The notes beneath the pieces are model-generated. The model saw only the letters and a list, made by a program, of their open reading frames with translations, did no database searches and had not been told where the DNA came from. A DNA stretch of 64,000 nucleotides from Psammoneis japonica (Eukaryota). This document shows positions 3,001 to 51,162 of the stretch, piece after piece (position 1 is the stretch's first letter; each line of letters opens with the position of its first letter). Made by a program: the position numbers and the translations under genes. Location of the stretch: NCBI GenBank assembly GCA_008632985.1, contig QPGO01000027.1, forward strand, positions 434,001 to 498,000, in the 5' to 3' direction.

Positions 3001-3600
3001 GGCAGTGGAAGGTTTCTGTGAAGGTGACCCCTGCAATGACTTTTGGTCACACGAGTTCTTGAGCTTGTTGATTTTTTCACAAAGAGCCATGATCTGCTCT
3101 TGTTCACTGGTCAAGACATTTCATTTCTTGGAACTTCTTTTCAGCACAAATCATGAGTTGCTTGGAAGCAATGTCTTCTCCATCATTGCAGTCATTGTTG
3201 ATTTGTTTGGCACACTTGGTGAAGGCCTTTTCTCAGCACAGGCAGCATGTCCCGCACAAACTTGTTAAAAACCTTGATGTCATGCTTGGCAGTCTCTGCC
3301 ATGTGGACATCCAAGGCAGAGAGCTCCAAATGAACATGGGAAGTGACAGCAGCTGTGACACCTTGGGCTGCTGCCTTTCTCAACCAGCCCATCATTCTTG
3401 GTGGAGATTGCCACACTTTCATGGAGCAGATGGATCCCAGCTTCAAACTGAGTCCATGCATTGCCAGCCTCTGCCAACAGAAGTCTCATTGGAAGAGCCT
3501 CCAAGTCACTGCTCACTGCTTTGCATGGGACCGACGCTATCCTGGGCATGTTTCTCTTGCGTGCTGCTAAAAGCATTCCATGCACAGACATCTGCTGCAC
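1..3600 (-). mobile_element. Degenerate Ty1/Copia (CoDi-like) LTR retrotransposon remnant: gag, protease, integrase and start of RT; runs off the window start
   Basis: Minus-strand fragments in Copia order. Gag-like ~3600-2820 (AVTSHVHLELSALDVHM..DIKVFNKFV). Protease ~2680-2150 (SFLLGIDDHASCC...LPSPQHLAQ). Integrase ~1650-860 (CVLVDQL..QLKG..SRFSFVHLQ..ETVAAK; CHCHANNRCF; ISFCGVNAQFQNGISE). Pre-RT motif below 390 (ASANPDTMCVHQAMKQPDA.QFKEA). Many frameshifts and stops; no LTR identified. Confidence 0.9.
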
Positions 3601-17363: not shown

Positions 17364-17649
17364 GACATCCACCCTCTAGCGTGTCAATTGGGTGTTTGGC
17401 CTCTAGTGATAAGTAAGTAATCATGCTTTAATAGGGCTACTGGTTGACCCCTCCAACCTCTCCAATCGCAGAGGAGGAGCGTGCTAGCCACCACGACTTG
17501 CAGATCGTAGAGGGACTGTTTTTTGCGGAAACGCGGTCGACGAAGCGTGTGACGACCGGAGTGTTTTGTTTTCGGGAAACATTCTGGATGGAGATCCTGC
17601 GGTGTTTCTCGACACTGTTCAAAGACAACCATGCATTCTAGCACGTTGA

Positions 17650-19350
17650 TGAAGATGATGCTGTGTGCCCGTTTCTTGTTGTATGGCATCGCATTGCTCC
17701 TTCTACTCTCCTCTGACCTCAGGGATGCTTTGAACCAACCCACGCCCAAGAGCCATCATCGACCCCAACAATTGCAGTTCCTTTTGGATTGGGCAAAGGT
17801 TCAACATGGAGCCTGCATGCCCGACAGCATCAGCTGGACCAAGACATGGATCTGGTCTTTGTGGTGTCTCCCGATGTTTCATGTCCACCTCAACAGCAGA
17901 ACTGTCACCATCCCAGCGTGTTGGGTGGGAGCATCTCAGTGAGGCAGAGCATGCCATGGTGACCACCTCTCACAAGTTGAGATGAAACCCAGCCATGGAT
18001 TGATGGAGCACAACAAAGTGACTTGAGGACAACACTGAGGAAGATTGCCCAGAGCAAGAATTGGGGTGAATCATTGCAGCTCTGCCTGGATTGGAGAGAG
18101 ATGCACTCCCAAGAGGTCCTGACAATGCATCTTCTGCCAAATCTTGTTCTTTCTTTGACAATGGTGAAAAACTCCACGTCACACCAGTTGTCAAAAGATT
18201 GTCCAAAACAATGTCAGATGGACCAGTTGCTCTCCATGTTTTGCTTGTTGTTGTTGGTTCTAGAGAAATGCAGAAAGGGTGAATCTGGCAGTCTGTGGCA
18301 TCTTTGGCTTCAATCTTTGCCAAACACTTTCATCACTGGGCCATTCTGGGGTGAGTTGGAGCTGGAACATGTGAAACAAAACTCGTCACAGGTCCAGGGT
18401 CTGCAACACCTTGAAAAGCAGTTGGAAACACTCCAAGTCATGTTCAATGAAGTGATCACACCCACAGCATGCTGCAAGTCCAGCAGGCAATGTCAGCTGT
18501 TGCTTTGCACAAGACCCCGCGGCACATCTCACACAGTTCAAAAGGGTGTTCCTGCTTGTGCTGCTGCTTGCTTGGGGGACATGCTCAGCCACTGTGGCAG
18601 GAGAGCCAGTGGTGCTGCATGTCCCATGCAAGAGTCCTCTGATGAGACCTTGTCACCGCTGCATGTCACTTTCCACCCAACTTCCTTGGTGTGAGCTGTG
18701 GTGAACAAAGCTCCACTTCCCACTTCTTCTGTGATTTGGGCTCTGCAACACTGCAAGTCTGACCACACTTGCAGCACCAATTGCGCACAGCTTCTCCATG
18801 AATGACACAGCTCTTGCGATGGCAGGCTGGCATGGTTTTTGGCAATGTGTGCTGAGAGTGGTGGCATTTTAAATTGAGTGCATGGAGTGCTGATGCTCTT
18901 TTCCATGTCATGCTGAATGAAGGTGCAGGTGGCCATGAACCCCACAACAGATGTTTGTAAACCCTGGCTGATGATGGCAAGAGGCGGCAGAGATTCATCA
19001 GGGCTGCTGCTCAAATGTTTTGGAGAAGCTCTCATTTCTCACAGAGTCTGCCCTCATCATCTCTGGCACTGGTTGTTGGCCTCTCCCAGAAGAAAGAATG
19101 GGCAAGCATTTTCTTGCCATGCACTCCAATTGAGAGATGCTCCATCCCATGGCTTCATGGTGCATGTGCACAAGGAACATCCATCAGAAGCTGCTGTGGT
19201 GGCTTGAGCAGCCCCCGAAGCCATTTTGGAAACACTGCCCAAGGGGGGGGGTTGCAGCACCACTCTTGGCTCTCCTCGTACAATGTTCCTCAACAGCTCT
19301 GCAACATCTCAAGCCAGATTTTGCTTGCACTGCATCTGTGGGGCCATTGT
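17650..19350 (+). pseudogene. Degenerate SET-domain (Rubisco-LSMT-like) lysine methyltransferase gene
   Basis: Fragments QFLLDWAKVQHGA, LLVLEKCRKGESGSLWHLWLQSLPNTFITGPFWGELELEHV and a downstream ..GWHGF (expected YGF). Frameshifts and stops present. Confidence 0.6.
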
Positions 19351-20253
19351 TGCAGCTTGATTCTCACTCTGCCTTGTGTGGGGATGATGCCCTTGTTGTC
19401 CAAACATGAGCTGGCAAAAAGGAGAAAAGAAATTGACCCAGAGGCATGAGCTGACAATTGGGCCCAAGAAAGAAAAAGAAAAAAGTGGCTGTGCACATTA
19501 AATGGGCAATGCTGAGCTGTGTGTTTTTGTTCTTGAAACTTTTCTTGCTGTGCTGGAGCTTGTTGCTCTGCAGCTGTTGACTGTTGCCATTTTCTGTTTC
19601 CAGTGGGAGCATGTTGTTGGCTTGGAGTGGCAGTTTTCATCCTTGGCTGCATGGTTGCATGTCATTTGTTGCTTCATCATGTGTCAAGCTGTTTGGGAGA
19701 ACACTTGCACTGAGCAAAAAACCAAATGATTTGTTTGCTCTTTGCTTGCAGATGCAGAGCTCTTGCAAAAACATGGTGATGGGTCAAAGCACAATCATGT
19801 GTGTCTGACTTTTGCAGTTGTGCAAGGAAGATCATTTTCACAATGTTGCTTGCCAGCTGCAGTGCATGGCCAGATGGATCAGAGTTGTTTGACCATTTTT
19901 GAAAATTGTTTGCATGATGTGGCCAAAAGAAAATGTCTGAATGCCACCTCACCCATTGAAGCTGTGTGCAGGCCACAACCAAAAAGACAACTCATGGTTT
20001 GGCTGATGACATTGGTTGTTGGACCAGCTTCGTCTGGTGGGGCAACAATCTGACATTGTGCGCAAACACGCACATGACAATCTTGCCCACAATGCCAAAA
20101 TTTTTTGCATTCAATGCCAAAATTCTTACACGGTGTGCAAGAAATCTCACTTCTGATGTAAATTTTTTTGTCATGCATTGCAAGAAAATTCAAATGTGAT
20201 GACCATGCAGATGATGTTCCCAACTTTTTGAAGTGCAACACTCTGCCGCTTTT

Positions 20254-23200
20254 CACCGTGTGACAAATTACCTCACGACCAGTCCCCAATTTACGTTGCA
20301 TTCAAAATGTGCTTTAAATGCAACAAGCACAGGCATGACATTCCCGACTTTTTTCAGAGTGACACTGTGTCACTTTTCGCTGTTTGACATTTTGGCACTC
20401 CAGTCAACGAATGATTCACACTCCATTTTAGTTGTCACTGCCACAGTGAGTTGAATTTCCTGGTTAATTTTGCTGCTGTCATCACATGCTGGTGGCTGCA
20501 TGCCAGCAAATGTTGCTGTCATGCCTCCTCCCATGTGCTCGTGCAATCCTCAGCTGCTTCCGTGGGTTGTCATTCACTCTGCCTCCTCGAGAACCCATTC
20601 GTGTTGAAGCACTGTTGTCAGTTGCTGCTGCTCCTGGAGTCTCTTCCTCTGAGTCCCCCTGTTCATTGTTCTTTCCTGTGGCCTCCTCCTTGCTGTTGCT
20701 CCAATCAGTTTTCGGAGCAGCCCACCCCCTCATGCCACCCTTCTTTTCTTCTTTCTTTTCTTGCCGCACGCACTCTCTGATTTCTGTCTGAAGGTGCTGT
20801 GCATCAACTCTGCTGTGTTTTGTTCTCTCCTCTGCCACTGCATCATAGAGTTTGTTGTGTTGGTCGAATCCCGTCCTTGAACCATCCTTGATTTTGCCTG
20901 GCCCCTTTCCCCTGAAAAGTGCACTTTGGGGGCACGGGCTGTGTCGGCTCTTGTGGCACCTCTCCTTCCTTGTTGAATTGCTCTTTGATCTCCACCACAG
21001 CTGCCGCCATCTTTGTGGCAGTTGTCGTGCATTGGCCTTGCAAAAGCTTCCGCACTTGTTGTCAGCCAATTGCTGACACCTTGGTTGTCCACTGTCTTGA
21101 AGTGCTCCATTCCAGCCGCAATGGAGCAGCAATTTTCCAAGAACCAGCAGTGCATTTGTGGCAATGCCCTGCCCTTTTGATGTCTTTGATGCTTTGCATT
21201 CCTTCACATCCAGCCATCTCCAAGCAAGAGCCAATGGGTGAGAACACCGTTCCATGTCATCCATGCGTTGCCTGAGTTGCACTTGCCAACCATCTTCTTT
21301 CTAAAAACCTCCTGCCTGTTGTTTCTTCTCCTGTCTGGTCTTTTCCTCACTTTCTTTTTGTTTTCTTCCCACCAAACTGCGCAGTCACTCATGTCAACGT
21401 TGAGGTGTTTGCAAACCTTTTTCTGCATTTTGCTGCCAAAAGCCAGCTCAATCTTGTTGTGCATCACAAACTTTGTCTTTGGGCACACAGCTGCTGCAAT
21501 GCAGTCAGTCATCTGGTCATCCATAAACTTCCTTTTTGCTGCCTCTGAGCTGAGGAGCAACATTCCCACAATCTCCACATTGTGAGATCCTGTCTCTGCT
21601 GTGTCATGTGTGCCAACTGCAATGAAGAACACAATCTGTGTCAGCATGCAAACCCGTTTGTGCATCAGTGCTGTTCTTGCCACAATGCATGCACCTGATG
21701 AATTGCTTCACACCAACATGTTTGCCCGCCCTTTTTCACGTGTTGTGGCGTCAAAATTTCTCCCACAGAATCGAACCCCGATCTAGGGTGCACCTGCCAT
21801 CATGCCTGTTTGCCCTTCTTAATTTCGCTCTTTCTCTTTGAATGCAAAATTTTTCAAATGTGTCATTGTCACACACACATCAATGCATTTTGCACTCCAT
21901 TTGAATGGCGTGTTTTGCCGTTTGCCACTCCACAACATGTGTTCCCTCAAGATTTCATGAATTTCTTGAAGCTCCGTGCCACTGCATCTCATTGCATGCC
22001 AGATTTTTTGCTTTTGCAGCCGGCTTGCAACATGAACTGCCAGCCCTTGCTTTGCCGTCTGGGTCCCCATGCTGCACAGCAGTTGCCAAAATCTAAATTT
22101 TGTAAATGGGGCAATGGCCCAGGCATTCCTCCCCAGGAAATGTGCAGCATCTTCAAATGAAACAGTTGCAGCATGTGTTTGTGTGTCCTTTGTTTTGTGC
22201 AATGAACAACATCCAAAACTGCATCTTCTTTGGTGACCATGTTTCACCGCAACACACAAACTGTTTCTCTCAGCTCAGTTGCCAGTTTGCACCCTCTCCT
22301 TGCCACCACATCTGTTCCCACCTTCTGTGTCATCTTTGTGCTCCACCTTTCACTCAGCGTCTTGTCTCCCTCCCCTTCCGATGGGACTTGATTGCAAAAA
22401 TGACAAAATCTCTCGGCAACGTGTGCATTTCCAACCCAGTCAGTGCATCAGCAAGAGGATCTTGACACACAAGAAGGTCTCTTCTGATGGATTGTCTCCT
22501 GCTGACACAAATCATTCATTCCGGACTCTTGACATGGATGGATTTCTCAACACACTTCCCGCTGGCCAAGCTTTGGTCATTTGGCCAAGAGCGCTGCATT
22601 GCCACTCAACGGTTTGCACTGACTCACATCTGTCATCTGCGCTGAGGGAGGCAGCAGAGAGGAGTTGTCATCACAGACAGCCACACAAAGAAGATGGGCT
22701 GGTGCTGGGAGAAAATCTCTAATCTGCAAAAGAAAGCACCTTCATGTCACAGACAGGTTGGAAAAGCACTCACGTGCGGGCATGAAGGGTGGTTCTTCAG
22801 TTGGTTCTTGTGTGGAGGGACTGTTGATGAAATCCCTGGACATGTCAGCAGAGTTTTGCTCTCACTTGGACCGTTTTGGTTGGTCAAATTCTTGCCATTC
22901 ATTGCTGTTTCGTGCCAATGCCACTGAAGAAAATCTGAGAACCAAAGACAGCAAATTGGGTGCTGCCATTGAAACAACATCAGACAATCCAAGTGGCTGT
23001 GACAGAACATTTTCAAGCAAAACTCCTGAAGCCCAACATTTTCCAGCAGCAGCTGGAGACACATGCTGCGATGAACCCCTCTTTTCCAATCAAGCTCAGT
23101 TGGACAACCATGATTTTGGAAGTTTCAAAAGCTCAGCAGATGAGGCAGAAATCTCTGCCACAGCAGATGCAAATGTCAACAATGGTGTGCTTCTCATTGG

Positions 23201-24994
23201 CACGGTGTTTGGTGACAAAACAACTGACACAAACACCCAGGAATGCACAGACACAGCACATTGTCAGGCACTGGTTGATGCTGGTTTCAATGTCTGCACT
23301 GTTGACCACCGTGATGCAGACACTCGAAATCCAAATCACATGAATGCCGACGTCCGTGCTCTTTCTCGTTCTGACACTTGGACAGCAAATGAATGTGCCC
23401 ACAACTCCATGTTGATGGATGCAGTGACCTTGCCAAAGTGGTGCTTCAATGACAGCATCGTGACAAATTCCTTTTTCAGTCAATCCTTGACACAATTCCG
23501 TCAAAAGCTGTTGGACATTGGCAATGTTTTTCTGCCTGTCAACGTGCAGACAGCTGAGTGTCTTTACAAAAACTGGCCTGTGGTTGGTGAAGTCTGGATT
23601 GTCAGACATGTGTGCTGTGATCAGTGGGAGGAAAAGCCCCTTTTCCATCCCTTGGCAGTTGTGCAACTGGACAATTGTGGAACGGAAGGAAATGTGTGTC
23701 ACCACAGCAATGATTTTGGAGTTACGTTGTTGGAGGTTAGCTTGTCTTTGTGTGCTCTGTTTTGTTCTCAGTTGCTGTTTGCCAGTTCTGACCACTTCTC
23801 CATGCTTTCAACTGCTTGTCATTCATTTCTTTCCAGATGAAGGGGTTGGTTTCTGAGACCAACATGAATCAGGATCAATGTCAAGATTGGAGAGATCTGC
23901 AAAAAAGGGGTCATTGAACAAATCCTGCAGTTGAAGGGAAAAGTCGCACACAGGGATGCCAGGAGAAAGCTCCTGGGGCGGGTTGTTTTTGAATTGGTCA
24001 ACAATGGACACAGGCTCAAGGGGGATTTGCATCAGCACCGGAGCGACAATGCTGGGCAACATCAGCTTGAGCTTCAACATGAAAGTTTGAGAAGAAGGAA
24101 TTTGTTGGGTCACAGACAACCCACCACTCTTGAGAACTCTTGAACAGTTCTCAGAAGTTCATCAGCTGCACTGATTGGGTTGCAAACTTTGGGCACCACA
24201 AGGTCCTTGTCAGCGGAGAGGTGCCCCACTTGATCCAGTGTGTCAAAAGAGCCTGATTCAGCAAACAGGGTGGCAGCCCCTGGGGAGTCCAAAGCGGATT
24301 CACCACAATGAAATGGATTGGAAACAAATTCTTTGTTGTCAGGGAACTGGCACTCTGAAACATCATCAGGTTGGGGCACAACGGCATGGGAACACAGCGC
24401 AGCTCTGGTTCAGATGAAACTGCACAATGGGATTGCAAAGGCCGGGGATTGAGTTGAGTGTGACCTTGTGGAGTTGGCCCGGTGTTGGCGTGGGACCCAG
24501 CAGTTGCAACAAATTCAATTGGAGGAGAGCCGAGGGCAGAAGAGGCAGCAACGTCCCCCGGTTCTTTGGATTCTCCCATTTGCGAGTGTCCACCATGAGC
24601 ATTGCCTGATTGATGGGAAGAAATGGCACAAAGGCTTTGAGAAAAGGAGAGTTTGCAGGGAAGATGAGTTCTTGGGTGGTGCTGAAGACCAGTTGGGAGG
24701 AAACGTTTGCCACACATGGGACAATCATTTCCAATGGTGAAAGGGGGCACCATTGTTCATGTGGAAAAATTGAGATGAGAACAAGTGGGGCAAGGCCCGT
24801 GGCAAAAACGACACGTGGCAGGTGACAAGATTGTGTTGGACAAGTCAACTGACATGTCAGCGTGCAACATTGTGCCTTGATTCAATGCACAACATCAGTT
24901 GTCTGCACACCAGCATGTGGTGCTTGAATCAAACAATTGACACCACAAGACAAATCTGACTGACCGCAGTGACGGAAATTTTGTCACGCTGGTG
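20254..24994 (-). mobile_element. Degenerate DNA transposon, Plavaka/CACTA-like (tentative)
   Basis: Minus-strand C2H2-like start (CPMCGKRF..LQHH, ~24730) and transposase-like VCDFSLQLQDLFNDPFFADLSNL (~23950). Accessory ORF remnant 21683-20480 (KTKF..WWEENKKKV..RRNN; SNWLTTSAEAFA..DN). Imperfect inverted ends CACCGTGTGACAAATTACCTCAC (20254) and revcomp CACCAGCGTGACAAAATTTCCGTCAC (24994). No TSD seen. Confidence 0.45.
22665..23840 (+). pseudogene. 391-aa degenerate ORF inside the putative DNA transposon (cargo gene remnant, unknown function)
   Basis: C-terminal half looks like a globular alpha/beta protein (VLLIGTVF, GFNVCTVD, MLMD...P, GNVFLP) but has a single Tyr and many Cys/His, the domain-wide mutation signature. 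Confidence 0.4.
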
Positions 24995-27745
24995 CACATC
25001 TCAGATTGTTGCCCCCCCCCCCCCCCCCCCCCCCCGACGTTCTTGGGGCAAACTGGCTTGTGCTCTGACAGGCATCAGAGACCACAGAAGACAATGGTTG
25101 TGAAGCTGTTCTTTGAGCACAGCCTCTTCAACATCTGTGCTCATTTCTTTGGGCCATCAAATGCTGCCACACAATGTGGCTCAATGCCTGCATGTTTTCA
25201 CCTTGCTGGCTGAGTTGACAGGCAAGGGGGGTGCTTCATTTGGAGTGAAGCCTGCCAGAAAGCTTTTGTTGAGATGAAGTCAGCCATGTCAAGCATGATC
25301 CTTCTCCAATGTCTCAACTGCAATCTCCTGTTTCACATGTTTGCTGGTCAATCTGACTGCCAGATGTGCATGGCTCTGTCATTCAGGATGACAAGCTGGT
25401 TGCTTGTTGGTCCAAGAAATTGTTGGTGGTGCAGCACAGCTGCTCCACCATGGAAGAAAGAAGAGCTGCTTGTTGTTGTCATCTGCTTCAAGGATCTACA
25501 CACCACACCACTTGGCAGAGACATTGCTGCTCACACTGATCCCAGAAATCTCACTTTTTGAACTTTGAGTGCTCAGCGAGTCTTCAGGTGGCATTTTTTC
25601 CTGGAAAATTTTGCTCCACAGCTTTTTTGTGTGAAGACAAGGGCAACTCACTGACCGCTTTTTTCATTTTCCACATGTGGATCTGCCTTCAGAGTGGAAA
25701 AGTCTGGGGCCAAACAGCAAGCACAAGGGCCACCCAGATGGTCAGCCTCAAAAGTTGCATGCTTCCAAATTGATGAAGGAAGAGCAAGATGATGACCCAG
25801 GTTTTGTCACTGGCACTTTTGTGGATGAACCTGCACTGAGTTCAATGCTTTGTCTTCTGTTCTTGATGAGCCAGAGTTGTTTGAAGGTTTCTTGAGGCAT
25901 CAAAGCTTGGGGAGAAAATGCCAAATCAAGTGGAGATTTGTGATTGCAGGAGCTTTAAATTCAAGCACTGCTGGCAGCTGAGCCACTGGCAAAAGCAGCA
26001 GAGCCCTTGTTGGAACTTTGTTGTCAAAATCATGAGTGCTTGTCCTTTGATTTGTTGTCATCAGCTGACTCAATCTGCCTGGAGCTTGGAAAATTTGTGC
26101 CCCAACTGATTTGTTGTCTGATGTCTTGTCACATGGCACCATCATGTTCTGGGGCATTGTGGAGTTGTTTGTGCCATCATGAAAACATCTGGGCTGAACT
26201 CACCAGCGCACTGCCCCAATGGTCCATTGGTGTCTTGGGCTGAACAAGTTGCAGCTGATTTGGTTGGGGACATGAAGGGCAGCGATTTGGTGTCATGACC
26301 TGGAATTTGATGTGCTCACTTGTGTTGACACAGTGACCAGTTCAACACAACTTTCACAAATTGGTGACAGCAAAACATTGCAACACGTTGCTGACAAGTG
26401 CTGCAATCCTTGGTTGTCTTTCTGTCCAAGACTGAGTTGCTGCACTCTTGACAATGGCAACACCACGTTTGTTGGCAACGTTGTTGGCTGAGAGTTTTGT
26501 TTGCTGTTGAGTCAAGTGGTGGGTGCTGTGGATGCATCAAATGGTGTGCTGCACTCATTGCTGACCCACCTGACAATCTTCAACAGGCAAAAATGAATTT
26601 GAGGACAATGCTTTGGCTGCTGCCTCACATGCCTTGCATTGTCCTTTCTCAAGGGCTGTGCAGGAATCTTTTCAGGCCCACACCAGCATTTCAACATGAC
26701 GCAATTTTTGGCCCATCAGCAGGAGCTGTCTGTGATTCAAGCCAACCACCAAGCATTGACTACAACTTGCACCGTCTGGCTTTGAAACAAGGTCTCGTGC
26801 TCCTCTCACTCTTTCGCCTCCGCCGCGCCACCAACAGCTTTGCCTGCAGGGCATGGCTGGTTATACAGTCGCATCGAACCAAAACGTGCGCGATCAACTA
26901 GCTCTATCCCCGGCCACCTTCATACAGTAACTGCGCACCATAAACTCTAGGGTTGTAAGAGTGCTTATACTTAGCTTCTGCTCTATAATTTTCAATCTGC
27001 TAAGTCTATCATCTTCAACTCTTCAAGGTGATCGCCACCCTACTGTACACTCTGCTCAGATAAGTTCTTAGCCAGAGCCAGCAACACTCTCCTTCAGAAA
27101 AGTTCCTTTGTGGCTCATCAAGAAGTCGGATGAATGCCGTTTTTATCAAAGAGTGGATTACTCGATGCAGATTCGGGTCATTCAAGATTGCACACAGGCG
27201 TGCGTGGCAAAAGGCAAGTCTTGGGCAAAATGAATTGTCCAATGTAGTACTCTCATCACTAACGTCTCTTGAGGAAAGCTCTTACGTGTGCTAATGACTA
27301 GGGACCAATTCTCTCCAGATCAACAGTCATGTCTGCTGGATCAAACCCCACAGCAGGTCGCAGTTTCTCGCCTTGGCTTGGACCATAGAGTGCTAGAGCT
27401 TGGCACCTAGTAGATAGAGAGCATGCCGAGTGACGCATTGCATCATGGAGACAAAAGTCACTAGCCCCATTGACGTTGACTTGGCCAGTCTGTGGCAACT
27501 GGCACGTCGTCTCCTTATTCCGACGTGTATTCCAACCGTCATTGTAGTCCATCTTGTCAAAATGTTGCGTTGTTCCAGTAGCCGCTCCATGTTAGAGTGA
27601 TTGCAAAAGGCACTGCGACAACCACTGGTATCGAACGGAGGCGGAACAACAGAACGAAGGCGTGCTGTGCGTGTAAGAACAGTGCAAGGAGGGTACCGTC
27701 CGGCACCTACATGCGGAGGCGGAGTTGCAGCTTACCTTGAGATTG

Positions 27746-29437: not shown

Positions 29438-29539
29438 TTTCTTTTGGTTGGGTTGTTTCCTTTTGTTTTGCATTATTTGTGTGGTCCAATTTTCTCTTTG
29501 AAGAGTTTAATTTTTTCTCCCGCCTAGAAACCATGGCCG

Positions 29540-32500
29540 CTGGACGCTGGGGCAGAAGAACCTTGCAGCATGCAGAGACGCTCACTGGGTTTTTTTATGA
29601 TTGTTTCTGAAGAACTTGCCAGTCGTCCCAAAAGAGTTTGTGGGTGCATGTGTTGCGCCTGGCAAGGAATCGCCACAGGCATGTTTCACAAATGACAGGG
29701 AGGGGTGGCCACGGGCTGGAATTTTGAGGAGGGCCAACCAAGCACAGCTGGCTTGCACCAAGAAGCAGAAGAACTTTGTTGCACGCAGAAAGGCTCTCTG
29801 GGATTTTTCTTTGACGCCTGTTTCTGGAGAGAGGCTTGCTGGACCCCCAAAAGCACCCTGGCTTGCCACCAGAGATGGCCCAGAGCACTGACTCTCTCTC
29901 TGTTTTGCACATGATGTGGGGGGTGGGCACTGCCAGCCACTGAGAACAGCTTCAAGAAAAACCCCTGGCCACATTGTTTGCAAAAATGGCAGGGCCCAAA
30001 CACACCCCAGCAAGAGCCGGCTGCAACCTCACATCAGTCAAGCCAAGTTGCCTGCCAGAAGTCTTGCAGTTTGACCATCTCATCCTCAGCTGCATCTCTC
30101 ATGTTCTTGAAATGCCATTTGTCATTTGAGCGGAACTTTTCTGTTGTTGTTTGAATGCCCTGCTGCACACAAAATGGTTTTTGTGTGGGGCACACCAGTG
30201 TGTTGCCCCCCCCCCCCCCTTTTGTGTGTGTGTGGGCACAACTGAAGCAAAGTCATGTGTTTGTCACCAGTGGAAGCAATGGGCAACAGTGCATTGTGCA
30301 TGGCCAGCTTTGGAGCATTCACAGCTGCGCAGCAGCTCAGCAAAAGCTTGTGATGCACTGGCTTGTTTTTCTGTTTCTGCTCAAAGAGAGCTCTGCCAGC
30401 TTCCTTTGCTGCATGCATTCCACAATCTGCCATGGTGCAAGGATCAAAACCAAAAAAGGAAAAATGGTGGTGGGAGTGCCACACACAAAAACAAAAAGAA
30501 AAAAACCGCGCAGCTCTCTGTGCCAGCCACAACACCTCCTTCTCTTGGGCTGGAGTTGTGAAAATTGAGGCATGCCGCGCAAGAAGTTGAAGCACTGAAA
30601 AAGGAAGTTTCACAGCAATCACAAAAATGGTGCACAAAGTGACCCAACACATGACAACTCATCTTGGTCAAGTTGGAACACTTGTCCCTTTTTGCTGCTG
30701 ACCATCTGAGGTGTGTTTTCACTTTTGGACAAAAATTTCACAAGGTTTTCTGCACATTTCTGTGTGTGTCACATGAATTTGGCACCAACCAAGTGTGCAC
30801 AAAGTGTGCACTGAGTGTCAGCAGGCCGGCACCATGACCCACGAGAACAGTTCTCTGAGTGCAGTTGGATCACATGGCTGAGCACCATGACATCTTGCCA
30901 ACAGGCACAGCAGATCCACAATTTCAAATGATGGGTGTCAACAAATGACAGTTGTGCTGCTGCTTTGATGTGGCTGCACAACATCTGGATTGCAACAATT
31001 TTTTCTGCATCTCACACAGATGTCTGATGGGTCTGGAATGTGAGCAAAAGCAACCACCATGCCTGAACCTCACCAGCCAAAGACATGGGTGGGTTGTTTC
31101 CTTTTGTTTTCACATCTGTCTGGTTTGATTTTCTCTTGTTTGGCAGGATGAAAATTTTCTCCCACCATGTTTGACATGCACCAACTTTTGCTTGACAAGC
31201 AAGTGCAGATGTGTTTTGTGAACAACAGGGCAGGAGACAGTGCTGCACATGACAAAAGCTGCTGGCTGGTGCTTTGTGAGGGCACAGCCAAGTGCTTGGC
31301 CAGAAACTTGGGCTGCTGGAAGCTGGGGCACCAGAAGAACCTGGCACACAGAGAGATTCTGGGGGTCATCTGATCACTGTTTTTGGAGAACTTGCCACAG
31401 ACCAAAAACAGCTGCATGTGTGACAGCCACACACCCCAGCCAGCTCTCTGTTTGTCTTCTGTCTTTTGTGTGTGTCATTTGGTGTGTGTCTCAGCTGAGT
31501 CAGACTGTGCATCATGGACAATGGACCGGCACTTTTTAGACAGTTGACATGATCTCTTTGAGATGTTTTCTTGCTCTTTCTTGCCAGCGCACATGTCATC
31601 TGCTGGTGCTGCTGCACCCAGATTGCATGAAAAGCTTCTCAGCAACATTGCCACAGGTTGTGGCCTTGTTGGGTCATTGTTCTTCTGCCTTGCAGATCCC
31701 ATTGTGATGATTTGTTTGGTGTTTTTGTGAGCTGAGCAAGACTGCTGCCATTTTTTGACCCTTGCGGTGTTTTTTTTTTTCTTTGCAGCACATCAAACTT
31801 TGACTTTGCTGTTTTGATGCTTGTTGTGTGCACTTTGCTGAAGACTCCCAGGACCCTGCACCTTGAGCAACCCTTTGACTTTTCTGTCACCAAAACAACA
31901 AGTGCAGTTGCAGAAGACAACTCTTTTTGCATCCTCTGTGAGCTCTTCATGTTGCATGAAAAGTGCAAACAATTGTCATTTGAAGTTGGCTGGGTGCAAC
32001 AAAAGAAATGGCAAAACATTTTCTGGCCATTTTCTCAGCACTTCAAAAAAACAAAAGCAGGCCCAGGGAAAGAGTCAATGAAAAGTTGGGGGAAAGTTTG
32101 TCAGATTTGCAAATGACCTCCGCATGTGCACTTGTCACCTGGGCATTTCTCACAGAGGGTAAAAACATGTGACACCTGGGCTCTGTGACAAGCCACTTCT
32201 GTTTTTGTGTGCAGTGTGCTCGAGACAAAGGGCTGTCGACACTCTTCGCCACAGCTCCTGCTCCAACTTCACCCTGCTGATGCTCCCCACTCCACCCTTG
32301 ACCTCTGCTTCCTCTCCATGATGCCAGTCTGCCTTTGTGCCTTCTCACTCACATCGACCTGTGGCTGCCCTTTGGTGGTCAGCCACACGCCCCTGCTGCA
32401 GAAACACCAACGCCCATTCCCTTGCAGATCAGCTTGCCCGATGTGCCCTGAAACTTGACAAATCACTTGCCTTTGCCGTCCACCAAACTGCCAACGTTTC

Positions 32501-36761: not shown

Positions 36762-37928
36762 GATAGTCTACAGTAAGCAGAAAGTGCCTGGATGGTCACT
36801 CCTACCAGGTACATACAGCACACACAAACAGGCTGGTTTCGTTTGCTGTACCCGATCTCGAGCGAATCACCACAATGACAAGCAAAAGAACGCTAGCAGC
36901 CTCTCTCAGACTTGCATCCTCTTCCTCATCCTTTCTGATTGTTTTGAATTTCGGCGCGATGCTGACAGGGATGTGATGGCTGCTGGCTGGCTGGCGAATT
37001 GGCATGGATTTGAAAAATAAAAAATGGAAGCGTCAAAACATGAGACTTCGGTCAACGAGGAAGCACGGCATTTGGAGCGTTTCAAGACCCAATTCTCGAT
37101 ACAAAACAGGAAATGTCTTCTACGATAATATATTTCGGTTATCTTATGTAGAAATGGCGGGAAATTTCAAACAGGTAACAAGACTTGAACTTCAAATCTG
37201 ACACTCCTCCTAAATGCAAAAAGGCTACCTTATTCTGTGAAGAATCAGCTCATAAGGATGTTTTGGTCTTGTCGACGTCTTTTTTGAAATTTTTCATTTA
37301 CGCCAGCCAGCGTATTGATATATTAGGATATGCAATATGTGAACAGGAAGCACAGGGAAGGTGATGATTTTTTTACGGGATTGGGCCCTAATATATATTT
37401 AAACAACAAAGAAAAGGATTGAATTATTTCGAAAATATTAGCCTTCCAACGGATCAACTACACATAAAATTTTATATAAAGTTTAGTATCGCTTGATTAG
37501 GAATTTTCAATTTTTGATCTTGTTCAGGGGGGTGTTCGGTTCAATAACACGAATATTCGGCCATCCATCCGAGGTGCGATCCAAGTAAGAATTGTGCAAT
37601 CCCCTTCACTTTTCCAACATTGTCGTCAATCGCCTAGTGTTGTGTAAATACCAGAGGTAAGGCGACCATGAGAAACACTCGAAAGATTCGGCTTACCGAG
37701 ATGGGCTTGTTGAACTGCAATGAAGCACGTAAAGAAGTGGCGGCAATCTCGGCGTGGTTGTCTGTTGAGCTGACATCTTGTTTACAAGAACAATGACTCA
37801 CCTCCAATTTGAATCTTGTGTATATAACCCAGGTCGCCTGAGACACCTCATCCCTGTTCGAGACATTCGAATAAACTCAGGCAGCGACTCAATCCAATAA
37901 GTGAATACGTGCTTTGTGGTATCGAGCA

Positions 37929-40198
37929 ATGAGAGTGTTGGTAGTTTCGATCGCCGCCTTGCTTTCAGGCAATTTCGCCTCTGCCGATGACACGCGACAG
38001 CTGACTCGCGTGCTCAAGAGTCGGATTTTAGGATGCTGTGTTGATTGTGTCTGCGATCAAGCGGGAATGACCAATTACTGCGCGTGTGATTGCAGTGGAT
38101 GTAAAGGAGGGAAGGGTTACAGTTCAAGCAGTAGCAGTAGCAGCAAGAGCAAAGGCGGCAAGAAGGGAAGTGGAAGTGGCAGTAGCAGTAAAAGCAAAGG
38201 TGGTAAGAAGGGAAGCAGCAGCAGCAAAAGCAGCAGCAGCTCACCTCCACCACCACCTCCGCCGACGCCACCTCCTCCTCCCCCACCGACGCCGCCGCCT
38301 CCTCCTTCACCGCCTCCTCCTCCTCCTCCACCGCCTCCTCCTCCTCCTCCTCCGCCGCCTAAACCGTCCAGCTCCAGTTCAAGCTCTTCCAGTTCATCGA
38401 GCTCGTCCGGTTCATCGAGCTCGTCTTCACCAAGCTCGTCCAGTTCATCGAGCTCGTCCAGTTCATCGAGCTCGTCCGGTTCATCGAGCCCATCCGGTTC
38501 ATCGAGCCCATCCGGTTCATCGAGCCCATCCAGTTCATCGAGTTCGTCCGGTTCATCGAGCTCGTCCGGTTCATCGAGCTCGTCCNNNNNNNNNNNNNNN
38601 NNNNNNNNNNNNNNNNNNNNNNNNNNNNNNNNNNNNNNNNNNNNNNNNNNNNNNNNNNNNNNNNNNNNNNNNNNNNNNNNNNNNNNNNNNNNNNNNNNNN
38701 NNNNNNNNNNNNNNNNNNNNNNNNNNNNNNNNNNNNNNNNNNNNNNNGCAAGTCGTCCACGGGCGGTGGCAGTACTGGCAAGTCGTCCACGGGCGGTGGA
38801 AGTACTGGCAAGTCGTCCACTGGCGGTGGAAGTACTGGCAAGTCGTCCACGGGCGGTGGAAGTACTGGCAAGTCGTCCACGGGCGGTGGAAGTACTGGCA
38901 AGTCGTCCACGGGCGGTGGCAGTACTGGCAAGTCGTCCACTGGCGGTGGCAGTACTGGCAAGTCGTCCACTGGCGGTGGAAGTACTGGCAAGTCGTCCAC
39001 GGGCGGTGGAAGTACTGGCAAGTCGTCCACGGGCGGTGGAAGTACTGGCAAGTCGTCCACTGGCGGTGGCAGTACTGGCAAGTCGTCCACTGGCGGTGGC
39101 AGTACTGGCAAGTCGTCCACTGGCGGTGGAAGTACTGGCAAGTCGTCCACTGGCGGTGGCAGTACTGGCAAGTCGTCCACGGGCGGTGGAAGTACTGGCA
39201 AGTCGTCCACGGGCGGTGGCAGTACTGGCAAGTCGTCTAGCAAGTCGTCCACAGGCGGTGGAAGCTCCAGCAGCAGCAGTGACGACCCAGCAACAGCTCC
39301 AGGTCCGCCGTCTCCATCGTCTAGTTCCAGTTCGTCGAGCTCCAGTTCGAGCGATTGTCCACCTACGAGCTCTAGTAGTTCAAGCAGCAAGTCTAGTAGC
39401 AGCCCAGGCGTGTCTCCCGAACCGCCAACCCCGCCGGCACCCACTCCACCGGCGCCAACCCCGCCGTCACCACCCCCGCCTCCGCCTCCTCCTCCCCCGC
39501 CGTCACTACCACCACCACCACCACCGCCGCCACCGGCGCCAACCCCACCGGCTCCTACGCCACCCGCACCGAAGCCAACGAAACCATCAAAGTCATCGTC
39601 AGGACCAAGCGAGAGCTCCGGTTCAAGCACTTCGTCCGGGTCAAAGTCTAGCGAATCGTCAGAATCGCCAGGAATGTCTCCTCCGATGCCAACTCCGCCA
39701 AGTCCATCGAAGCCAGCATCGTCGGCTAGCTCTGGAAGCTCTCCTGCGAAGAGTCCATCTTCTGGAAGCAGCACGTCGCCTGCAATGCCGTCTGCAAGTA
39801 GTGGCGGGATGTCATCTGGCAGCAGCGCGTCACCTGCAAGCAGTGGCGGGATGTCTTCTGGCAGTAGCGCGTCACCTGCAAGCAGTGGCGGGATGCCGTC
39901 TGGCAGCAGCGCATCACCTGCAAGTAGTGGCGGGATGCCGTCTGGCAGCAGCGCATCACCTGCAAGTAGTGGCGGGATGCCGTCTGGCAGCAGCGCATCA
40001 CCTGCAAGTAGTGGTGGGAAGCCGTCTGGCAGCAGCGCGTCACCTGCAAGCAGTGGCGGGATGCCGTCTGGAAGTGGTGGGAAGCCATCTGGAAGTGGTG
40101 GGAAGCCGTCTGGAGGCAGTGCTGGCTCCGGCTCTTCAGCCAAGAGCCCGTCTTATTCTGGAACCCGAGGATCAAAAAACTCAAGATCAATGCATTGA
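37929..40198 (+). CDS. Secreted silaffin/cell-wall-like Ser/Gly/Pro/Lys-rich repeat protein (spans an assembly gap)
   Basis: Signal peptide MRVLVVSIAALLSGNFASA, then RQL/RVL/RIL motifs, a Cys cluster, KGGK/KSKGGKK motifs, poly-Pro and poly-Ser. After the gap, the frame starting at 38750 reads (GKSSTGGGST)n and stays open to the stop at 40198. Confidence 0.8.
38586..38747. other. Assembly gap (N run) within coding tandem repeats
   Basis: 162 Ns between an 18-bp-unit Ser-rich array and a 30-bp-unit array. Confidence 0.99.
38748..39237 (+). repeat. 30-bp coding tandem array, ~16 visible units (GKSSTGGGST)
   Basis: Unit GGCAAGTCGTCCAC(G/T)GGCGGTGG(C/A)AGTACT; both variable positions are synonymous in this frame. 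Confidence 0.95.
39794..40070 (+). repeat. 42-bp coding tandem array, ~6.5 units (ASSGGMPSGSSASP)
   Basis: Repeat visible directly in DNA and translation. Confidence 0.9.
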
Positions 40199-40579
40199 AC
40201 GAGTTCAAGTAGAAGGTAGTGGCTCGTGTTTCTGAGCCACTCTGATTTATATAATTTTCTGTGTATACGACTATTGGAAGGAATGCGACGGGTGCAAGAT
40301 TATTTGTGCTGTTTACCGTCGTTATTATAGACCTTTTCAGGATGTATTGCGTAATTGTTTTCTTAAAGTTTGCCATTGACACTGAATTCTAGACTATGGT
40401 TGTGGTGGTTTCTGTATCGCTACAGTACACTGCGCCACTCTAACGTAAAAACAATGGATTACAAAAGTGCCATAGCAGCAGTAATTGATCATTACTTTTA
40501 GTAACGATGGAAGTCGTTGCTCGGACGTCGACGCAGTCAGGTTCTTCAGGCGTCGCGTACAGGACAAACCACGTCAGGT

Positions 40580-45982: not shown

Positions 45983-46889
45983 TTTCTCTTAGTCTACTGA
46001 CCCTACGTGTGAATTATGAACAAGGTCTCTTCTTTAGACGCTTTGCCGCTATTTGAGAAGCGAGGCGAGCATTGGTTGAGAAAACTGATGCTCTTCATGT
46101 TGAACGACGGCTTCCCGTTCGATCTTTTGCGGCTCTATCGCGACGCTATCCTCTCGACATGCTGCGGGGGACGGACAGATGTTTTGGTCCATGCTGCTTC
46201 GCTTCGTTCGTTCGTTCGTTCGTTCGTTCGCTTCTCACTTCGATTGCGGCCGGCGGAACCAGCCCCATGCCAAGGCTTCCTCCTTCACAGTTCACAGGCA
46301 GCCCCCCCTTTGACATGCTCTCTCCTGCCTCAACCCCAACAAGACCCATCCCACAACCTCGAGCTTGCCTCCCGCGTGCGCTTTCTCAACATGCCGAAGG
46401 TTTCTTCTTCCCCTGCTCTCATCTGTCTGCACCCAAAACCTCTTCTGCCACCTTGCTTCAACACTGGCATCTGACTTGGTCCATCATCCTTTGCCACTTC
46501 CTTGGCTGCCCTCATGAAGTCTGCAACACTTTCCAGACTCCACTGCCACCCACGCCATGCCCATCAACAGCACACTGCCCCCACCCTTGACAACATGCTT
46601 CCTCTGATGTCCCAGCCTCCCTGTCTTCTCCTCTCAATGCTGACAAGCCTTCTGCTGTGCCCCCTTTCTTGCCGGCCAAGTTCCCTGCAGCTGGCTCACT
46701 TCTGACACCTGTGCCATTGCTGCTCAATGCAAGCACCCATCCTTCCACTTGCATCACCAGCTCTCTGACTGCCCCTGCAGCCATGTGTCACACCCTTGTT
46801 GCCTGCGTGGCAATCATGCTTTTTCTTGTTGCAAGAAGTGCACAGCCACAAGCCCAAGCTTTGCTTCTGGTGGCCTGTCTCTGCAAGAA

Positions 46890-47165
46890 TGACAGGATTT
46901 GAACAGGGTTTGGGTGCGCGTGAAATGTCGCACGCTGTTTAGTTTGCCGCGCACAGTTTTGTGTGCTTCAGTTCCACGCGTTCGCGCGCGATGCAGTTTG
47001 CTTTCGAGCCACAAGGCTCACAAGAACAATGACAGCAGCCCGATTGCACCGACTTCCATGTCTTTCGGCTCCTGCAACGGTCTCTGAGCAGAAACTCATC
47101 TGCCATTTAGACAGCAGCAAGGAGTTGTTGTTTGAATTCTTGCCATTTGCCTTCAATTTCTGCCA
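46890..47165 (+). repeat. 5' LTR (276 bp)
   Basis: Direct repeat of 49987-50261. Confidence 0.95.
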
Positions 47166-48930
47166 GATTAACAGTCTTGCTCATTGTCAACCCATTGAGC
47201 AACCGCCATCGTCGTCCTTGATTTACCGACGACGCTTTCAATTCTGCGTGGACCTCCGTGTGTGTTCTACGTACATCGGCAAGTCTACGCGCATTCAATG
47301 CCAGGCATCGGCAGGAAGTTAACGTCGCCGTCAAGTCTCCTCACCGCTGGATGTCTGGATTGATCGCACCACCTTTCATCGGTGAAGACATGCATTCAAC
47401 GGTCACATCCAAGTCTGTCCTTGATCCTCATCCCTTGACACACCCATTCAACGGTTAACGGTCAAGAACCCCACATGTTCAAGGATCTTCGTCGCTGAAG
47501 ACATGTGTGTGTGCACATCTTCACGGCCAAGAACTTGCACCCACTCTTTGGACTGCGGCTTTGCTGCCACTCTACAAGCACACCGAGTCCATTGCACCTG
47601 ATCCACCCCAGACCACTGGTGCTCTGCAGTTCCACCAGGTCCACGAGGACGACTGTGAGAGCAAGCAGCCATGATTGCAGCCCACGTTGGGGCGAGGGTG
47701 TTTTTCCCGCGTTTGTTCGTTCGTCCACAGTGCCTGACGCCTGCGTCAACTGGCCAGCCTGATCGGGAAATCCAACCGATGTAAAATGAGAATGGTTCGG
47801 GGGTCTTGTCCACCTCTGGTCAGCTTGCCTGCAGGGGTTTACAACCCACTGCTCCGCTCGCAAGCAACCCAAAGCGCCGCCAGCTGCGGGTTCGGACGTG
47901 CCGGCACAACTCTGCGGACCGGATGGGAAGTTTGGCACTCAACAACGAACGGGATGGCACAGCCCGGCGACTTCTGATTTTAAGACAGTCCAAGATTTCA
48001 AGTCAAGTCCAGCTCAAGTCAAGTCTTTTTCAAGCCAAGTTCCAAGTCAAAACTCCGAGTCAAGATCGCGCTCTAGATTGGATCCTGTCTTTTGTTTCTA
48101 CTGCACCGTCCTCCATCATGGTTCTCATGTGACAGCAACAAACCGAAAGCTTCAAATGCATTCTAGGCACTGTGCTCAATCAAGATTATGACAGCCCTCT
48201 TCGTTCTGCCCTGTCCATCAATGGGATTGAATCGTGCGAGGAATTGTTCACGTTCTTACCCACCCAAATTGACGCCCTCACTTACAGAGACGGCGCCAAT
48301 GCAGTGCCTTTGCCATGGACCCACAGAAACCTCCTGGCAGCTTTGATCAGCTTCTACTTTGTCAAAGTTTGCAATGGTGACGATGTGACCAATGAACCCC
48401 AGTTGCTCACACCGGATGAATTTCGCAACTGCCGCCTTGGTCCAGACTGCTTGACCTCTCTAGCCACTGGCGCAGCACCCTTTGCACCTGTGCCGAGTCC
48501 CTTGCCATCCAAACCAGGTGAACCCAGTGCCATTTTGACACCAGCCTTGCACTGTGCCACCACTCAGGTGTCCCCCAGAAGTGGTGTCAGTCGCGCCCCG
48601 CATGTCTTGACCAACCCGCCTGCAAGCAACCTCGGCCCAGTGCAGGATTGCAGCCCTTGCACAGGCCCGCACTTCGAGACCAGTTGGGACACTCCACCCA
48701 TGGCTTCCAAAGCTGCAGTCTTTGCACCCCGCAAACCACGTGCTGCCAACCTCCACGTGTCAACCACTGTCGCCCTTCACAGTCTTCGTTTGGGAAGTGA
48801 TGGAGATGACAACTTGCTTCTCGCATCTCCTGATGGGGAGCCTCCTTTTCCTGTCATTGAATCTGTTCACAACAGCTCAACCGGTTCATCAGATGGGGAG
48901 TTCAGGACATCCAAGCAGCTTTGTTGTCTT

Positions 48931-49440
48931 TGGATGCCTCAAGTCTTGCACCTTGAGACTGGGCCTCCTGATTGGATGCCTCAAGTCTCGTGCCTCGAGA
49001 CTGGGCCTCCTGATTGGATGCCCCAAGTGTCGCACATCAAGACTGGGCCTCCTGATCGGATGCCCCAAGTCTCGTGCCTTGAGACCAGGCCTCCCAACTG
49101 GACTCTCCATGTCTCGTGCCTCAAGACCGGGCCTCCAAATCGGATCCTCCACATCTCATGCCTCAAGACTCGGCCTCCGGATTGGATCCCTCAAGTCTTG
49201 CGCCACGAGACTCGGCCTCCTGATTGGATCCCCCAAGTCTCGCACCTCAAGACTTGGCCTCCTGATTGGATCCCCGAAGACTCGTGTCACAAGACTGGCA
49301 AGTCCTTTTGGATCCCAGAAGTCTTGCAGCACGGGACTGGTTGCCCCAATCAGACATCTGCAGCCTTGCACCACAAGATGTCTTGCTCCAATCCGATCCC
49401 CGAAGGCTTGCACCTTGAGACTCGCTTCTCCAATTGGATC
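48931..49440 (+). repeat. 42-bp tandem array (~12 progressively diverged units) inside the LTR element
   Basis: Unit TGGATGCCTCAAGTCTCGTGCCTCGAGACTGGGCCTCCTGAT, translating as WMPQVSCLETGPPD. Confidence 0.9.
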
Positions 49441-49986
49441 AGTCTCTCAGGAGATGCAGCTGAGCTTGCAATCGGATTGGTGGAACACAAGACCACCGCT
49501 TGTGCCTTTGAACTCATGCTTGCTCTGTTCCCCAAGTCGTGCAAACGCCATGCCACCCTGCACGAGCACTGCTCTGTTTTTCTGGCAGCAGCCCAGTGTG
49601 GCAACCGTCCCAAGAACCAACAGACGGCCATCAGTCTTTATGACCTTCGCTCAGGAAGTGAAGGCGATGTCAACTTGTTTGCATTGTCCTGCAATGTTGC
49701 CCCACCGTTCAACATTGTCAACCAGACCAAGCTTTGCTCCTTCCATTGCAAGTGCGGATGTGGAATCCCACAAGATCCCAAGTGTGCCTTGAGCTTTGAA
49801 AAGCACAACGGCATCTACAATTGGGGAGACGCAGCTCTTCTCAAGATGACCCACTTGGAGAATGCAACGTTGCTCTTGGATCTTGATCCTTTCTTGTCTC
49901 CTCATGTTTTGGTGCTTTGACTCCAAAGTTCTTCAGTCAATCCGAAGTCGAATCTGTTTCTGTGACTCCTCAAGCAAACTGGGGAG

Positions 49987-50261
49987 TGACAGGATTTGAA
50001 CAGGATTTGGGTGCGCGTGAAATGTGCACACTGTTTAGTTTGCCGCACACAGTTTTGTGTGCTTTAGTTCTGCGCGTTCACGCGTGATGCAGTTTGCTTT
50101 CGAGCCACAAGGCTCACAAGAATGACAACAGCAGCCCGACCATGCCGACTTCCACGTCTTTCGGCTCCTGTGACGGTCTCTGAGCGGAGACTCATCTGCC
50201 ATTTAGACAGCAGCAAGGAGTCATTGTTTGAATTCTTGCCATTTGCCTTCAATTTCTGTCA
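49987..50261 (+). repeat. 3' LTR (275 bp)
   Basis: Terminal inverted TGACAG...CTGTCA; direct repeat of the 5' LTR. Confidence 0.95.
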
Positions 50262-51162
50262 AAGAATGCCATCTTGCTCACCATCTCCCACACTCCAGGG
50301 CTCCTTGCCAAGCCACATCACTTGCCCACCAGCGACATCTGTCTCAAGCCTGCCACCCTCTTGCCCTCTTGATCCCTCCTCCACTTTGCTGGTGTTTGGC
50401 ACCTCTCTGTTCCCCCCCGCCCCCCTCTGTCTGCCCCTTCACACCACCCCTGTGTTGCTGCTGACATCACCACATCCCAAGCTCCTCACTGCCATCCTCC
50501 TGGTCTGCCTGCCCCCCCTCTGCTTCTGTCACAATTGAGGTGTGCCACTTCAGCTGCAGTGCGAGGTTGCCAAAGTTGGCTTTTCTCTGCCTTTCTGGGC
50601 TGTTCTTGACACCCACCCCGTGTCACCAAGTCTCTCAACAATTGTGGCATCTTCCTCCTTCCCTTCACTGTCAATCATTGGGGCCGTCTTTGCTTCTTTT
50701 TCACTGCATCTTTTTTGGATCTTCGCTTTCTGCCACCTGTTCTGAGCCCAAGCCCTCCCTGGCCCTCTCCATCAGACCCTCTCAGCAAGAACCCTCTGGC
50801 TGGTTTCCCCACCTCCTCCTTCCATCTGCCAATTTTGCCTGGGATCAACTCACCAATGACTGCTTCAGCAACACACACCAGCCCTGCTCGCCCCCTTCTC
50901 ATTGGTCGACTCAAACCTTGGTGATGTCGCGCACCTGGCAGATGGATGGCACACAGACAAAGACACAAATAATAATGCCGCATGTTTCGCGTCATTCGGT
51001 GCGAAACAAGCGAAAATGAGATTCCATGATGAGACAACAGACAACGGCACATCTTCTCGTCAATCCTGAGGACTTGAGCATCATCCGTTCATCTCATCCA
51101 CACCAGTTACAATAGGAACTGCCTTCTGAGAATCAGGATATTTGTTTTTTGTTGAGAGAATT

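Follow-up and report, generated by a model that had tools for sequence, protein, structure and literature searches.

A long terminal repeat (LTR) retrotransposon of the Ty1/Copia type lies at positions 46890-50261 of a 64,000-nucleotide stretch of Psammoneis japonica DNA (assembly GCA_008632985.1, contig QPGO01000027.1, positions 434,001 to 498,000 of the forward strand; hereafter the window). Comparison of its two LTRs with each other and with further copies in the genome indicates that TA dinucleotides in this family turn into TG or CA after insertion, by independent hits on both strands, and far faster than CG dinucleotides decay. We consider the existence of this process, as against its mechanism, practically certain. 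Sister LTRs served as a built-in clock and control, allowing the rate, the sequence context and the affected domain to be read from one genome.

Divergence between the sister LTRs

Across 275 columns, of which 274 are aligned and one is a 1-nt gap, the LTRs of the window element differ by 25 substitutions, all of them transitions. Seven doubles, in which one LTR reads CA and the other TG, account for 14 of these columns (46975/50071, 47027/50123, 47030/50126, 47045/50141, 47047/50143, 47075/50171 and 47126/50222). Six single differences pair CG with CA or TG (46934, 46951, 46984, 46989, 47059 and 47090), one pairs TA with CA (46969/50065), and the four remaining transitions are at 46908, 47044, 47093 and 47163. 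A preliminary description of this DNA had listed seven CA/TG, six CG and one TA difference with few others, and had attributed nearly all of the divergence to transitions within pyrimidine-purine dinucleotides. We reproduced every count: pyrimidine-purine columns (142/275) hold 21 of the 25 differences (p = 8e-4), and the same 21 fall within columns of the TA and CG classes defined below (80/275, p = 2e-8).

The claim that the younger insert is richer in TA and CG than the older DNA around it was also borne out. The element (3,372 nt) contains 26 TA, with an observed/expected ratio (O/E) of 0.14, and 153 CG (O/E 0.64), versus 0 TA and 15 CG (O/E ~0.15) in 1,269 nt of flanks (p = 5e-4 for TA, 7e-9 for CG). 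Host stretches on both sides of the block that holds the element, as measured in the window only, have a TA O/E of 0.43-0.58 and a CG O/E of about 1.

TA is the source of the changes

A CA/TG double requires independent hits on a TA or CG ancestor, as had been proposed, and the ancestral state can be read from other LTR copies in the genome (91 Mb in 597 contigs; ~950 LTR candidates at first look). In 97 distinct LTR copies, the pyrimidine-purine sites separated into distinct classes. The other copies read TA 15-33 times and CG 0-1 times at six of the seven window doubles, whereas the seventh reads CG in 79 copies and never TA; the doubles thus do not all trace back to CG.

The same was observed in whole elements. 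We kept 60 of 65 candidate pairs, with target duplications that were exact in 56 and had one mismatch in 4, and discarded the other 5, in which the duplications had at least two mismatches. Among 184 CA/TG doubles in the 60 sister pairs, 182 were at TA sites, one at a CG site (that of the window) and one at a CA site, TA being the sole observed state one step away from both CA and TG. The 926 differing columns comprised 656 of the TA class, 205 of the CG class and 65 others. When the pairs were ordered from fewer to more slow changes and divided into thirds, the sites at which both sisters keep TA numbered 115, 79 and 48.

Plain CpG decay, with the TA loss being compositional or an assembly artefact, has a negligible probability of explaining these data. 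CG decay is real here, with 194 single hits (103 CA, 91 TG) and one double at CG-class sites of the sister pairs, and the right flank of the assembly shows two 1-nt indels relative to short-read contigs from a single sample, from which the assembly may derive. These contigs span both element junctions with zero substitutions, and they are fragmented inside the LTRs, so that they cover at most a minority of the single LTR differences. On the other side, TA-class sites in 147 LTR copies read TA 952, TG 969 and CA 706 times and CG only 6 times (6/2,633), and CG-class sites in the same copies read CG 2875, CA 195, TG 152 and TA 0 times. These site classes rule out an origin from CG only. In addition, full-length copies keep their CG (median O/E 0.88) with TA gone (median O/E 0.19), independent metagenome contigs carry the same change (described below), and tyrosines (Tyr) of outgroup proteins have become cysteine (Cys) or histidine (His).

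In the protein comparison, 240 outgroup proteins provided 26 columns with at least 80% Tyr among the covering sequences. The family reads Cys 649, His 272, Tyr 318 and other residues 104 times at these columns, two of which are simply phenylalanine or tryptophan in the family, and it reads Tyr in 0 of 1,030 cases at 20 conserved Cys/His columns. Nearly all of these homologues are unaffected: 206 have no Cys/His at the Tyr columns and 3 have two or more. The set is biased towards intact frames and does not measure fairly how widespread the process is.

Reverse changes were equally rare in the DNA: none of 4,549 observations at LTR sites that stably read CA/TG was TA, and TA occurred 13 times in about 49,000 over whole elements. 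Repeat-induced point mutation (RIP) of ascomycete fungi resembles the present process in that it, too, hypermutates repeats by transitions at a particular dinucleotide and thereby disables transposons, but it makes TA from CA (C>T), the opposite direction, and the absence of such changes at the stable LTR sites excludes it. Taken together, the comparisons demonstrate, at the level of sequence, a change from TA to TG or CA on both strands by independent hits after insertion.

The doubles also bear on editing of RNA or cDNA during retrotransposition by an ADAR- or APOBEC-like enzyme. Reverse transcription copies both LTRs from the same template parts, so edits made at that stage would be shared by the sisters, and the opposite-strand doubles rule out such editing as the main cause. 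Moreover, the two strands of a single LTR are hit equally, and the flanking DNA is stripped as well. Some changes are indeed inherited between copies (361 same-state pairs versus 182 opposite), and ADAR favours a U on the 5' side of the edited A, according to the available text of a recent preprint (bioRxiv 10.64898/2026.01.13.699255); we nevertheless regard this route as extremely improbable.

Rate, strand and context of the TA loss

Measured over the bodies of 53 long copies, TA had a mean hazard of 1.32 per step and CG one of 0.093, with ~0.004 per site for other private changes; these hazards are approximate, as some inherited changes are included. TA was lost ~14 times faster than CG and at some 200 times the rate of other adenines per strand. 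Both dinucleotides are affected, but not to an equal degree. TA loss in these copies was correlated with the loss of CG (rho 0.78) and, less strongly, with other private changes (rho 0.55), and it reached a plateau near 80-90%. This pattern fits the cumulative action suggested earlier. The loss may occur in repeated bursts.

At 234 TA-class sites, we counted 8,825 single transitions, 24 CG and 46 other states. Hits in the sister pairs were balanced between TG (313) and CA (333), and strand concordance within an LTR equalled its null value (0.497 for both, p = 0.48), indicating no strand clustering. Such strand-balanced, unclustered hits argue for many independent events in chromosomal DNA. The target has a near-strict 5' T and a twofold preference for a 3' pyrimidine, with mean hazards of 1.04 for TAC, 1.04 for TAT, 0.61 for TAA and 0.53 for TAG (322 strand targets, p = 1e-9). 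Outside TA, A>G changes occurred at 3.7 per 1000 versus 1.85 for C>T and were likewise raised before C or T. They were alike after A, C or G (AAC 3.5, CAC 5.1 and GAC 4.6 per 1000; contexts overall 2-6). A secondary AA hot spot hinted at by the LTR columns did not hold up when whole elements, with their CA and GA sites, were included in the count.

These contexts are relevant to error-prone repair synthesis of the polymerase-eta type, which might be recruited by the T:G mismatches arising from decay of 5-methylcytosine (5mC). Polymerase eta has a WA (A or T, then A) motif, with AA as its second hot spot after TA. Its recruitment would account for a domain shared with CG decay and for the twofold excess of A>G over C>T outside TA. 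The lack of an AA hot spot largely refutes it, however, as do the scarcity of other states among the changes at TA sites (46 versus 8,825) and the number of TA hits, which far exceeds the CG events that would trigger repair. We therefore consider this explanation very improbable.

Some copies are spared at the 5' end

TA loss was significantly lower in the first 620 nt than in the remainder of the element in 14 of the 60 copies (Bonferroni-corrected), and the reverse was found in 0 of 60. The third query used to collect copies was a TA-rich 5' end and was the source of 10 of these 14, making 4/39 the fairer frequency. The spared zone consists of the 5' LTR and the leader (~600 nt), with its edge at ~nt 560-780. 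TA hits in the 14 copies number 13 for the 5' LTR and 119 for the 3' LTR. Across the sister pairs, the asymmetry between the two LTRs was highly significant (p = 2e-18), with some 5' LTRs having zero hits beside 3' LTRs with 9-13. CG was also retained, with losses at the spared 5' ends of 4/559 versus 253/6003 in the bodies (p = 3e-6) and versus 30/679 in 17 age-matched copies (p = 3e-5). Between nt 400 and 620, a region outside every query, the values for the spared copies were 52/266 versus 1548/2322 for TA and 0/153 for CG (p = 0.003). The window copy is not spared (TA loss 0.80 versus 0.82).

Judged from these counts, one and the same zone escapes both TA and CG loss in some young copies. 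Recent overwriting of the 5' end by gene conversion was not supported as the cause, since other private changes were not lowered in the spared end (7 seen versus 9.7 expected, with low power). Nor does protection by neighbouring host DNA account for the sparing, because 13 of the 14 spared copies have TA-poor upstream flanks. The spared zone would instead be an unmethylated, still open promoter, and TA mutation would follow a putatively methylated silent state while skipping that promoter. If this is true, methylation and open chromatin should shift at ~nt 600-780 in the spared copies. In Phaeodactylum tricornutum, CG methylation is DNMT5-dependent and marks transposon islands, young LTR-copia included, and 75 of 85 long LTR-copia elements, as given in the available portions of the report (PMC9998398).

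The asymmetry between sisters also concerns how the mutation is aimed. The same chemistry could be directed by repeat homology or small RNA in a RIP-like manner, perhaps once per sexual cycle, in place of methylated chromatin; the link with CG loss would then reflect shared targeting and not dependence. Consistent with this, the TA loss is confined to repeats and blocks, with the host genes of the window retaining the TA content given above; one copy (L161, on contig C283) separates the TA and CG clocks; and hypermutation in the chlorarachniophyte Bigelowiella natans, compared below, affects some lines only. However, homology alone cannot distinguish sister LTRs, because their sequences are identical. 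The LTR is the most repeated part of the element (~950 candidates), yet the 5' copy can be untouched beside a heavily hit, identical 3' sister, and homology-triggered RIP itself predicts that both duplicates are hit. The flanking block, furthermore, is wholly stripped though nearly single-copy today. Homology or small RNA as the guide is thus rather improbable in our estimation.

As for the surroundings of the copies, upstream flanks have a TA O/E under 0.2 in 48 of the 60 elements; the family is mostly found within DNA already stripped of TA, either because it prefers such sites or because copies survive there. A weak correlation (rho 0.31, p = 0.018) links a higher TA content of the downstream flank with more TA retained in the 3' LTR. 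One copy, L114, is the only one with a relatively spared 3' end (12/28 versus 78/101, p = 9e-4), and it adjoins TA-rich downstream DNA.

Structure of the window element

The element and its surroundings are composed of the following parts:

46260-46889, no strand: left part of the older TA-free block hosting the element (0 TA, CG O/E 0.16)
46885-46889, + strand: left target-site duplication AAGAA, seen in the sequence and paired with the right copy
46890-47165, + strand: 5' LTR, 276 nt, TG...CA; TA kept at 2/18 TA-class sites
47166-47990, + strand: likely primer-binding site and 5' leader (TA O/E 0.26, CG O/E 0.86)
47990-48320, + strand: start of a gag-like frame; the match to full-length copies stops near element position 1,425
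48320-49930, + strand: replacement interior with 42-bp tandem repeats (TA O/E 0.05, CG O/E 0.45)
49976-49986, + strand: polypurine-tract-like stretch, seen in the sequence; other 3' LTRs are preceded by the same ending
49987-50261, + strand: 3' LTR, 275 nt, one 1-nt gap; TA kept at 3/18 TA-class sites
50262-50266, + strand: right target-site duplication AAGAA, paired with the left copy
50262-50900, no strand: right part of the older TA-free block (0 TA, CG O/E 0.14)

Relative to its sister, the 5' LTR bears 7 TA and 3 CG hits and the 3' LTR 6 TA and 5 CG hits. The stretch after the 5' LTR is, from its position, likely to contain the primer-binding site, and the first ~350 nt of the leader correspond to the stretch spared in some other copies. 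The family was assigned to Ty1/Copia because the full-length relatives (~7.1 kb) carry an RVT_2 reverse transcriptase (PF07727, E = 6e-23 in the full-length copy L040; not in the window copy). An integrase-like stretch upstream of the reverse transcriptase was judged by eye; Pfam gave it no score. With the Ty1/Copia (CoDi) elements of diatoms, the family shares RVT_2, TG...CA LTRs, 5-bp target duplications, full-length copies of ~7.1 kb and a polypurine tract, a purine tract also preceding the 3' LTR of the window copy. The window copy differs from them as a short non-autonomous derivative with a replaced interior: it aligns to a full-length copy over the first ~1,420 and the last ~330 nt only. 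The replaced interior is common to other short non-autonomous copies (L042, L047), and the frame across it had no match in Pfam. The short copies of this 42-bp-repeat subfamily show ~50% CG loss near element nt 1100-1400, which was likely inherited from an older founder. The left flank has just two short weak matches elsewhere in the genome, and host-like composition returns near 50,950, past the right block.

Candidate mechanisms

A host adenine deaminase of the TadA/ADAT kind, acting on silenced, CG-methylated chromatin, is our candidate for the activity that strips TA, with a probability that falls just short of even. In this scheme, a Copia element would integrate, and the A of TpA would later be changed to G on either strand, giving TG or CA. 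The likely agent would be a host DNA adenine deaminase, working solely where chromatin is silenced and CG-methylated and converting A to inosine, which would be read as G; the accompanying CG loss would represent 5mC decay. Since conserved Tyr residues become Cys or His, the activity may serve as a transposon defence. If an enzyme is responsible, it would be a candidate natural DNA adenine editor.

A profile search of the genome yielded 5 matches to MafB19-deam and 4 matches to A_deamin at two loci. We take the deaminase genes, partly from their motifs, to be TadA/ADAT2-like, dCMP-deaminase-like and ADAT1-like. Two loci, L172 and L173 (on contigs C41 and C317), contain the same dCMP-deaminase-like 324-aa frame and are perhaps alleles assembled twice. 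The genome also has 27 DNA-methylase matches. Several of them are on contigs C10, C297, C301 and C28, some clustered and some with internal stops, and this set may be expanded or partly dead. Engineered TadA editors favour YA or YAY (Y, pyrimidine), according to the accessible part of one study (bioRxiv 10.1101/2025.05.14.653640), and the TAY preference seen here may be likened to theirs as a resemblance only.

Several observations weigh against the deaminase and its link to silent, methylated chromatin. TadA editors also edit CA, a context in which the rate here does not exceed that of AA or GA. If the deaminase were processive, its hits might be clustered by strand, and no such clusters were seen. 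The deaminase matches resemble an ordinary housekeeping set, in which nothing stood out as the cause, and the sequence would look the same whether the A or the T opposite it had changed. Of the ~950 candidates, the copies analysed are those that scored best with three queries. For the 4 spared copies that did not depend on the TA-rich query, the sparing of CG was not significant (3/160 versus 76/1749, p = 0.15). In the 16 pairs found only via the 3' LTR, TA hits differed between the LTRs (70 versus 107, p = 0.007) and those at CG did not (29 versus 36, p = 0.46). Finally, L161 combines a high CG loss (0.12) and many private changes with a TA loss of only 0.42, so that the two clocks can part.

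An alternative source of the changes is a symmetric base mark at TpA, such as methylated adenine or oxidised thymine, that decays or miscodes on silenced DNA to give TG or CA; mutation would then be the by-product of a second epigenetic mark. TA is palindromic like CG, its hits are strand-symmetric and independent, its specificity is close to absolute, and one domain contains both TA and CG loss, all of which suit such a mark. A rate ~14 times that of CG decay is high for a passive process, though, and to our knowledge no TpA mark with such an outcome is known. A profile search of the genome for Tet/JBP gave no match, but the control genomes gave none either, so that absence was not established. 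We judge a TpA mark to be unlikely, while still a serious contender to the adenine deaminase.

Comparison with B. natans and other systems

The process works like the TpA hypermutation of B. natans, the mutation spectrum of which it matches. There, TpA changes to TpG or CpA in integrated DNA of nucleocytoplasmic large DNA viruses (NCLDV) and virophages, as measured de novo in mutation-accumulation lines; the rate is about 1000-fold above background, only some lines are active, and an ADAT-type (ADAT2-like) deaminase was proposed as the cause (Mettrop et al., bioRxiv 10.64898/2026.01.13.699255, from the text available). Four features reported there are found here as well: almost only transitions, restriction to TpA, action on both strands, and hits on foreign or selfish DNA with host genes spared. 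The present host, in contrast, belongs to another supergroup and, judged by protein similarity, is likely a diatom: many diatoms, at about 44-56% identity, are among the named homologues of a phosphagen kinase encoded nearby, with oomycetes and animals at lower identity. The target is an LTR retrotransposon instead of integrated viral DNA. Depletion is near complete here (O/E 0-0.2) versus 0.45 in the viral region of B. natans. The domain shared with CG decay, the spared promoter end and the TAY preference do not occur in the available text of that paper, the main text of which does not contain "LTR", "diatom" or "CpG". New here are therefore the lineage, the LTR-retrotransposon target, the near-complete depletion, the domain shared with CG decay and the spared promoter.

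That preprint, from 2026, is the one precedent found in the literature for a natural A:T to G:C change at one dinucleotide in chromosomal DNA, and no report of TpA loss in diatoms was found in a search that left most subscription journals outside; the accessible parts of PMC12344493 and PMC8147415 added nothing on TpA. Decay of 5mC at CpG is strand-symmetric and slow (hazard 0.093) and accounts for the change of CG to CA or TG, but it cannot yield the TA class, with its ~14-fold faster loss and 182 of the 184 doubles.

The process is likely to occur in other organisms too. We examined 49 metagenome loci related to one Cys/His-rich homologue, a collection that was seeded with an affected protein and gives no frequency estimate. 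In three of them (L214, L219 and L179, all Copia-like reverse transcriptase regions), TA O/E was 0.13-0.31 with CG near 0.75, and conserved Tyr columns read Cys/His in 9/9, 8/8 and 7/16, respectively. At the other 46 loci, Tyr is preserved almost throughout these columns (0-2 Cys/His). The best matches of the three loci in the P. japonica genome, with 40 candidates scored each, had identities of 71%, 67% (79% over one 95-nt piece) and 68-69%; the loci are likely from other organisms because the genome holds no close copy.

A wider proposal would be a "reverse RIP" in diatoms and other hosts of related Copia elements, meaning an undescribed system of DNA adenine editing, guided by silent chromatin, in which transposons would lose TA at ~14 times the pace of methyl-CpG decay and open promoters would stay untouched. 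It may be shared with B. natans as an old eukaryotic genome defence. This proposal is tentative and, in our estimation, somewhat more likely to be wrong than right.

Consequences for LTR dating and further features of the window

The mean Kimura two-parameter (K2P) distance of the 60 sister pairs was 0.060 over all columns versus 0.0056 outside TA/CG sites (~11-fold), and that of the window pair was 0.101 versus 0.021. The preliminary description had warned that LTR dating would overestimate age. This is correct when a genome-wide rate is applied, which would overstate LTR age roughly 5- to 11-fold, but the error is not a constant factor, because the 5' end can be spared and sister LTRs are not always hit equally. 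One diatom survey dates LTR elements by identity to a consensus with a P. tricornutum rate, and the part of its text available contains neither "TpA" nor "dinucleotide" (bioRxiv 10.1101/2025.10.24.684338). Loss of TAA and TAG stops and of Tyr codons would tend to open long false reading frames in dead repeats.

Elsewhere in the window, positions 37905-40235 contain a frame of low complexity, with tandem repeats of 9, 30 and 42 nt nested in one another; an assembly gap (N) also lies there, and Pfam returned no match for the frame. Sharply bounded blocks with low CG and a TA O/E mostly below 0.15 lie amid host-like stretches at 1-3500, 13500-15500, 17500-26500 and 29500-32500.

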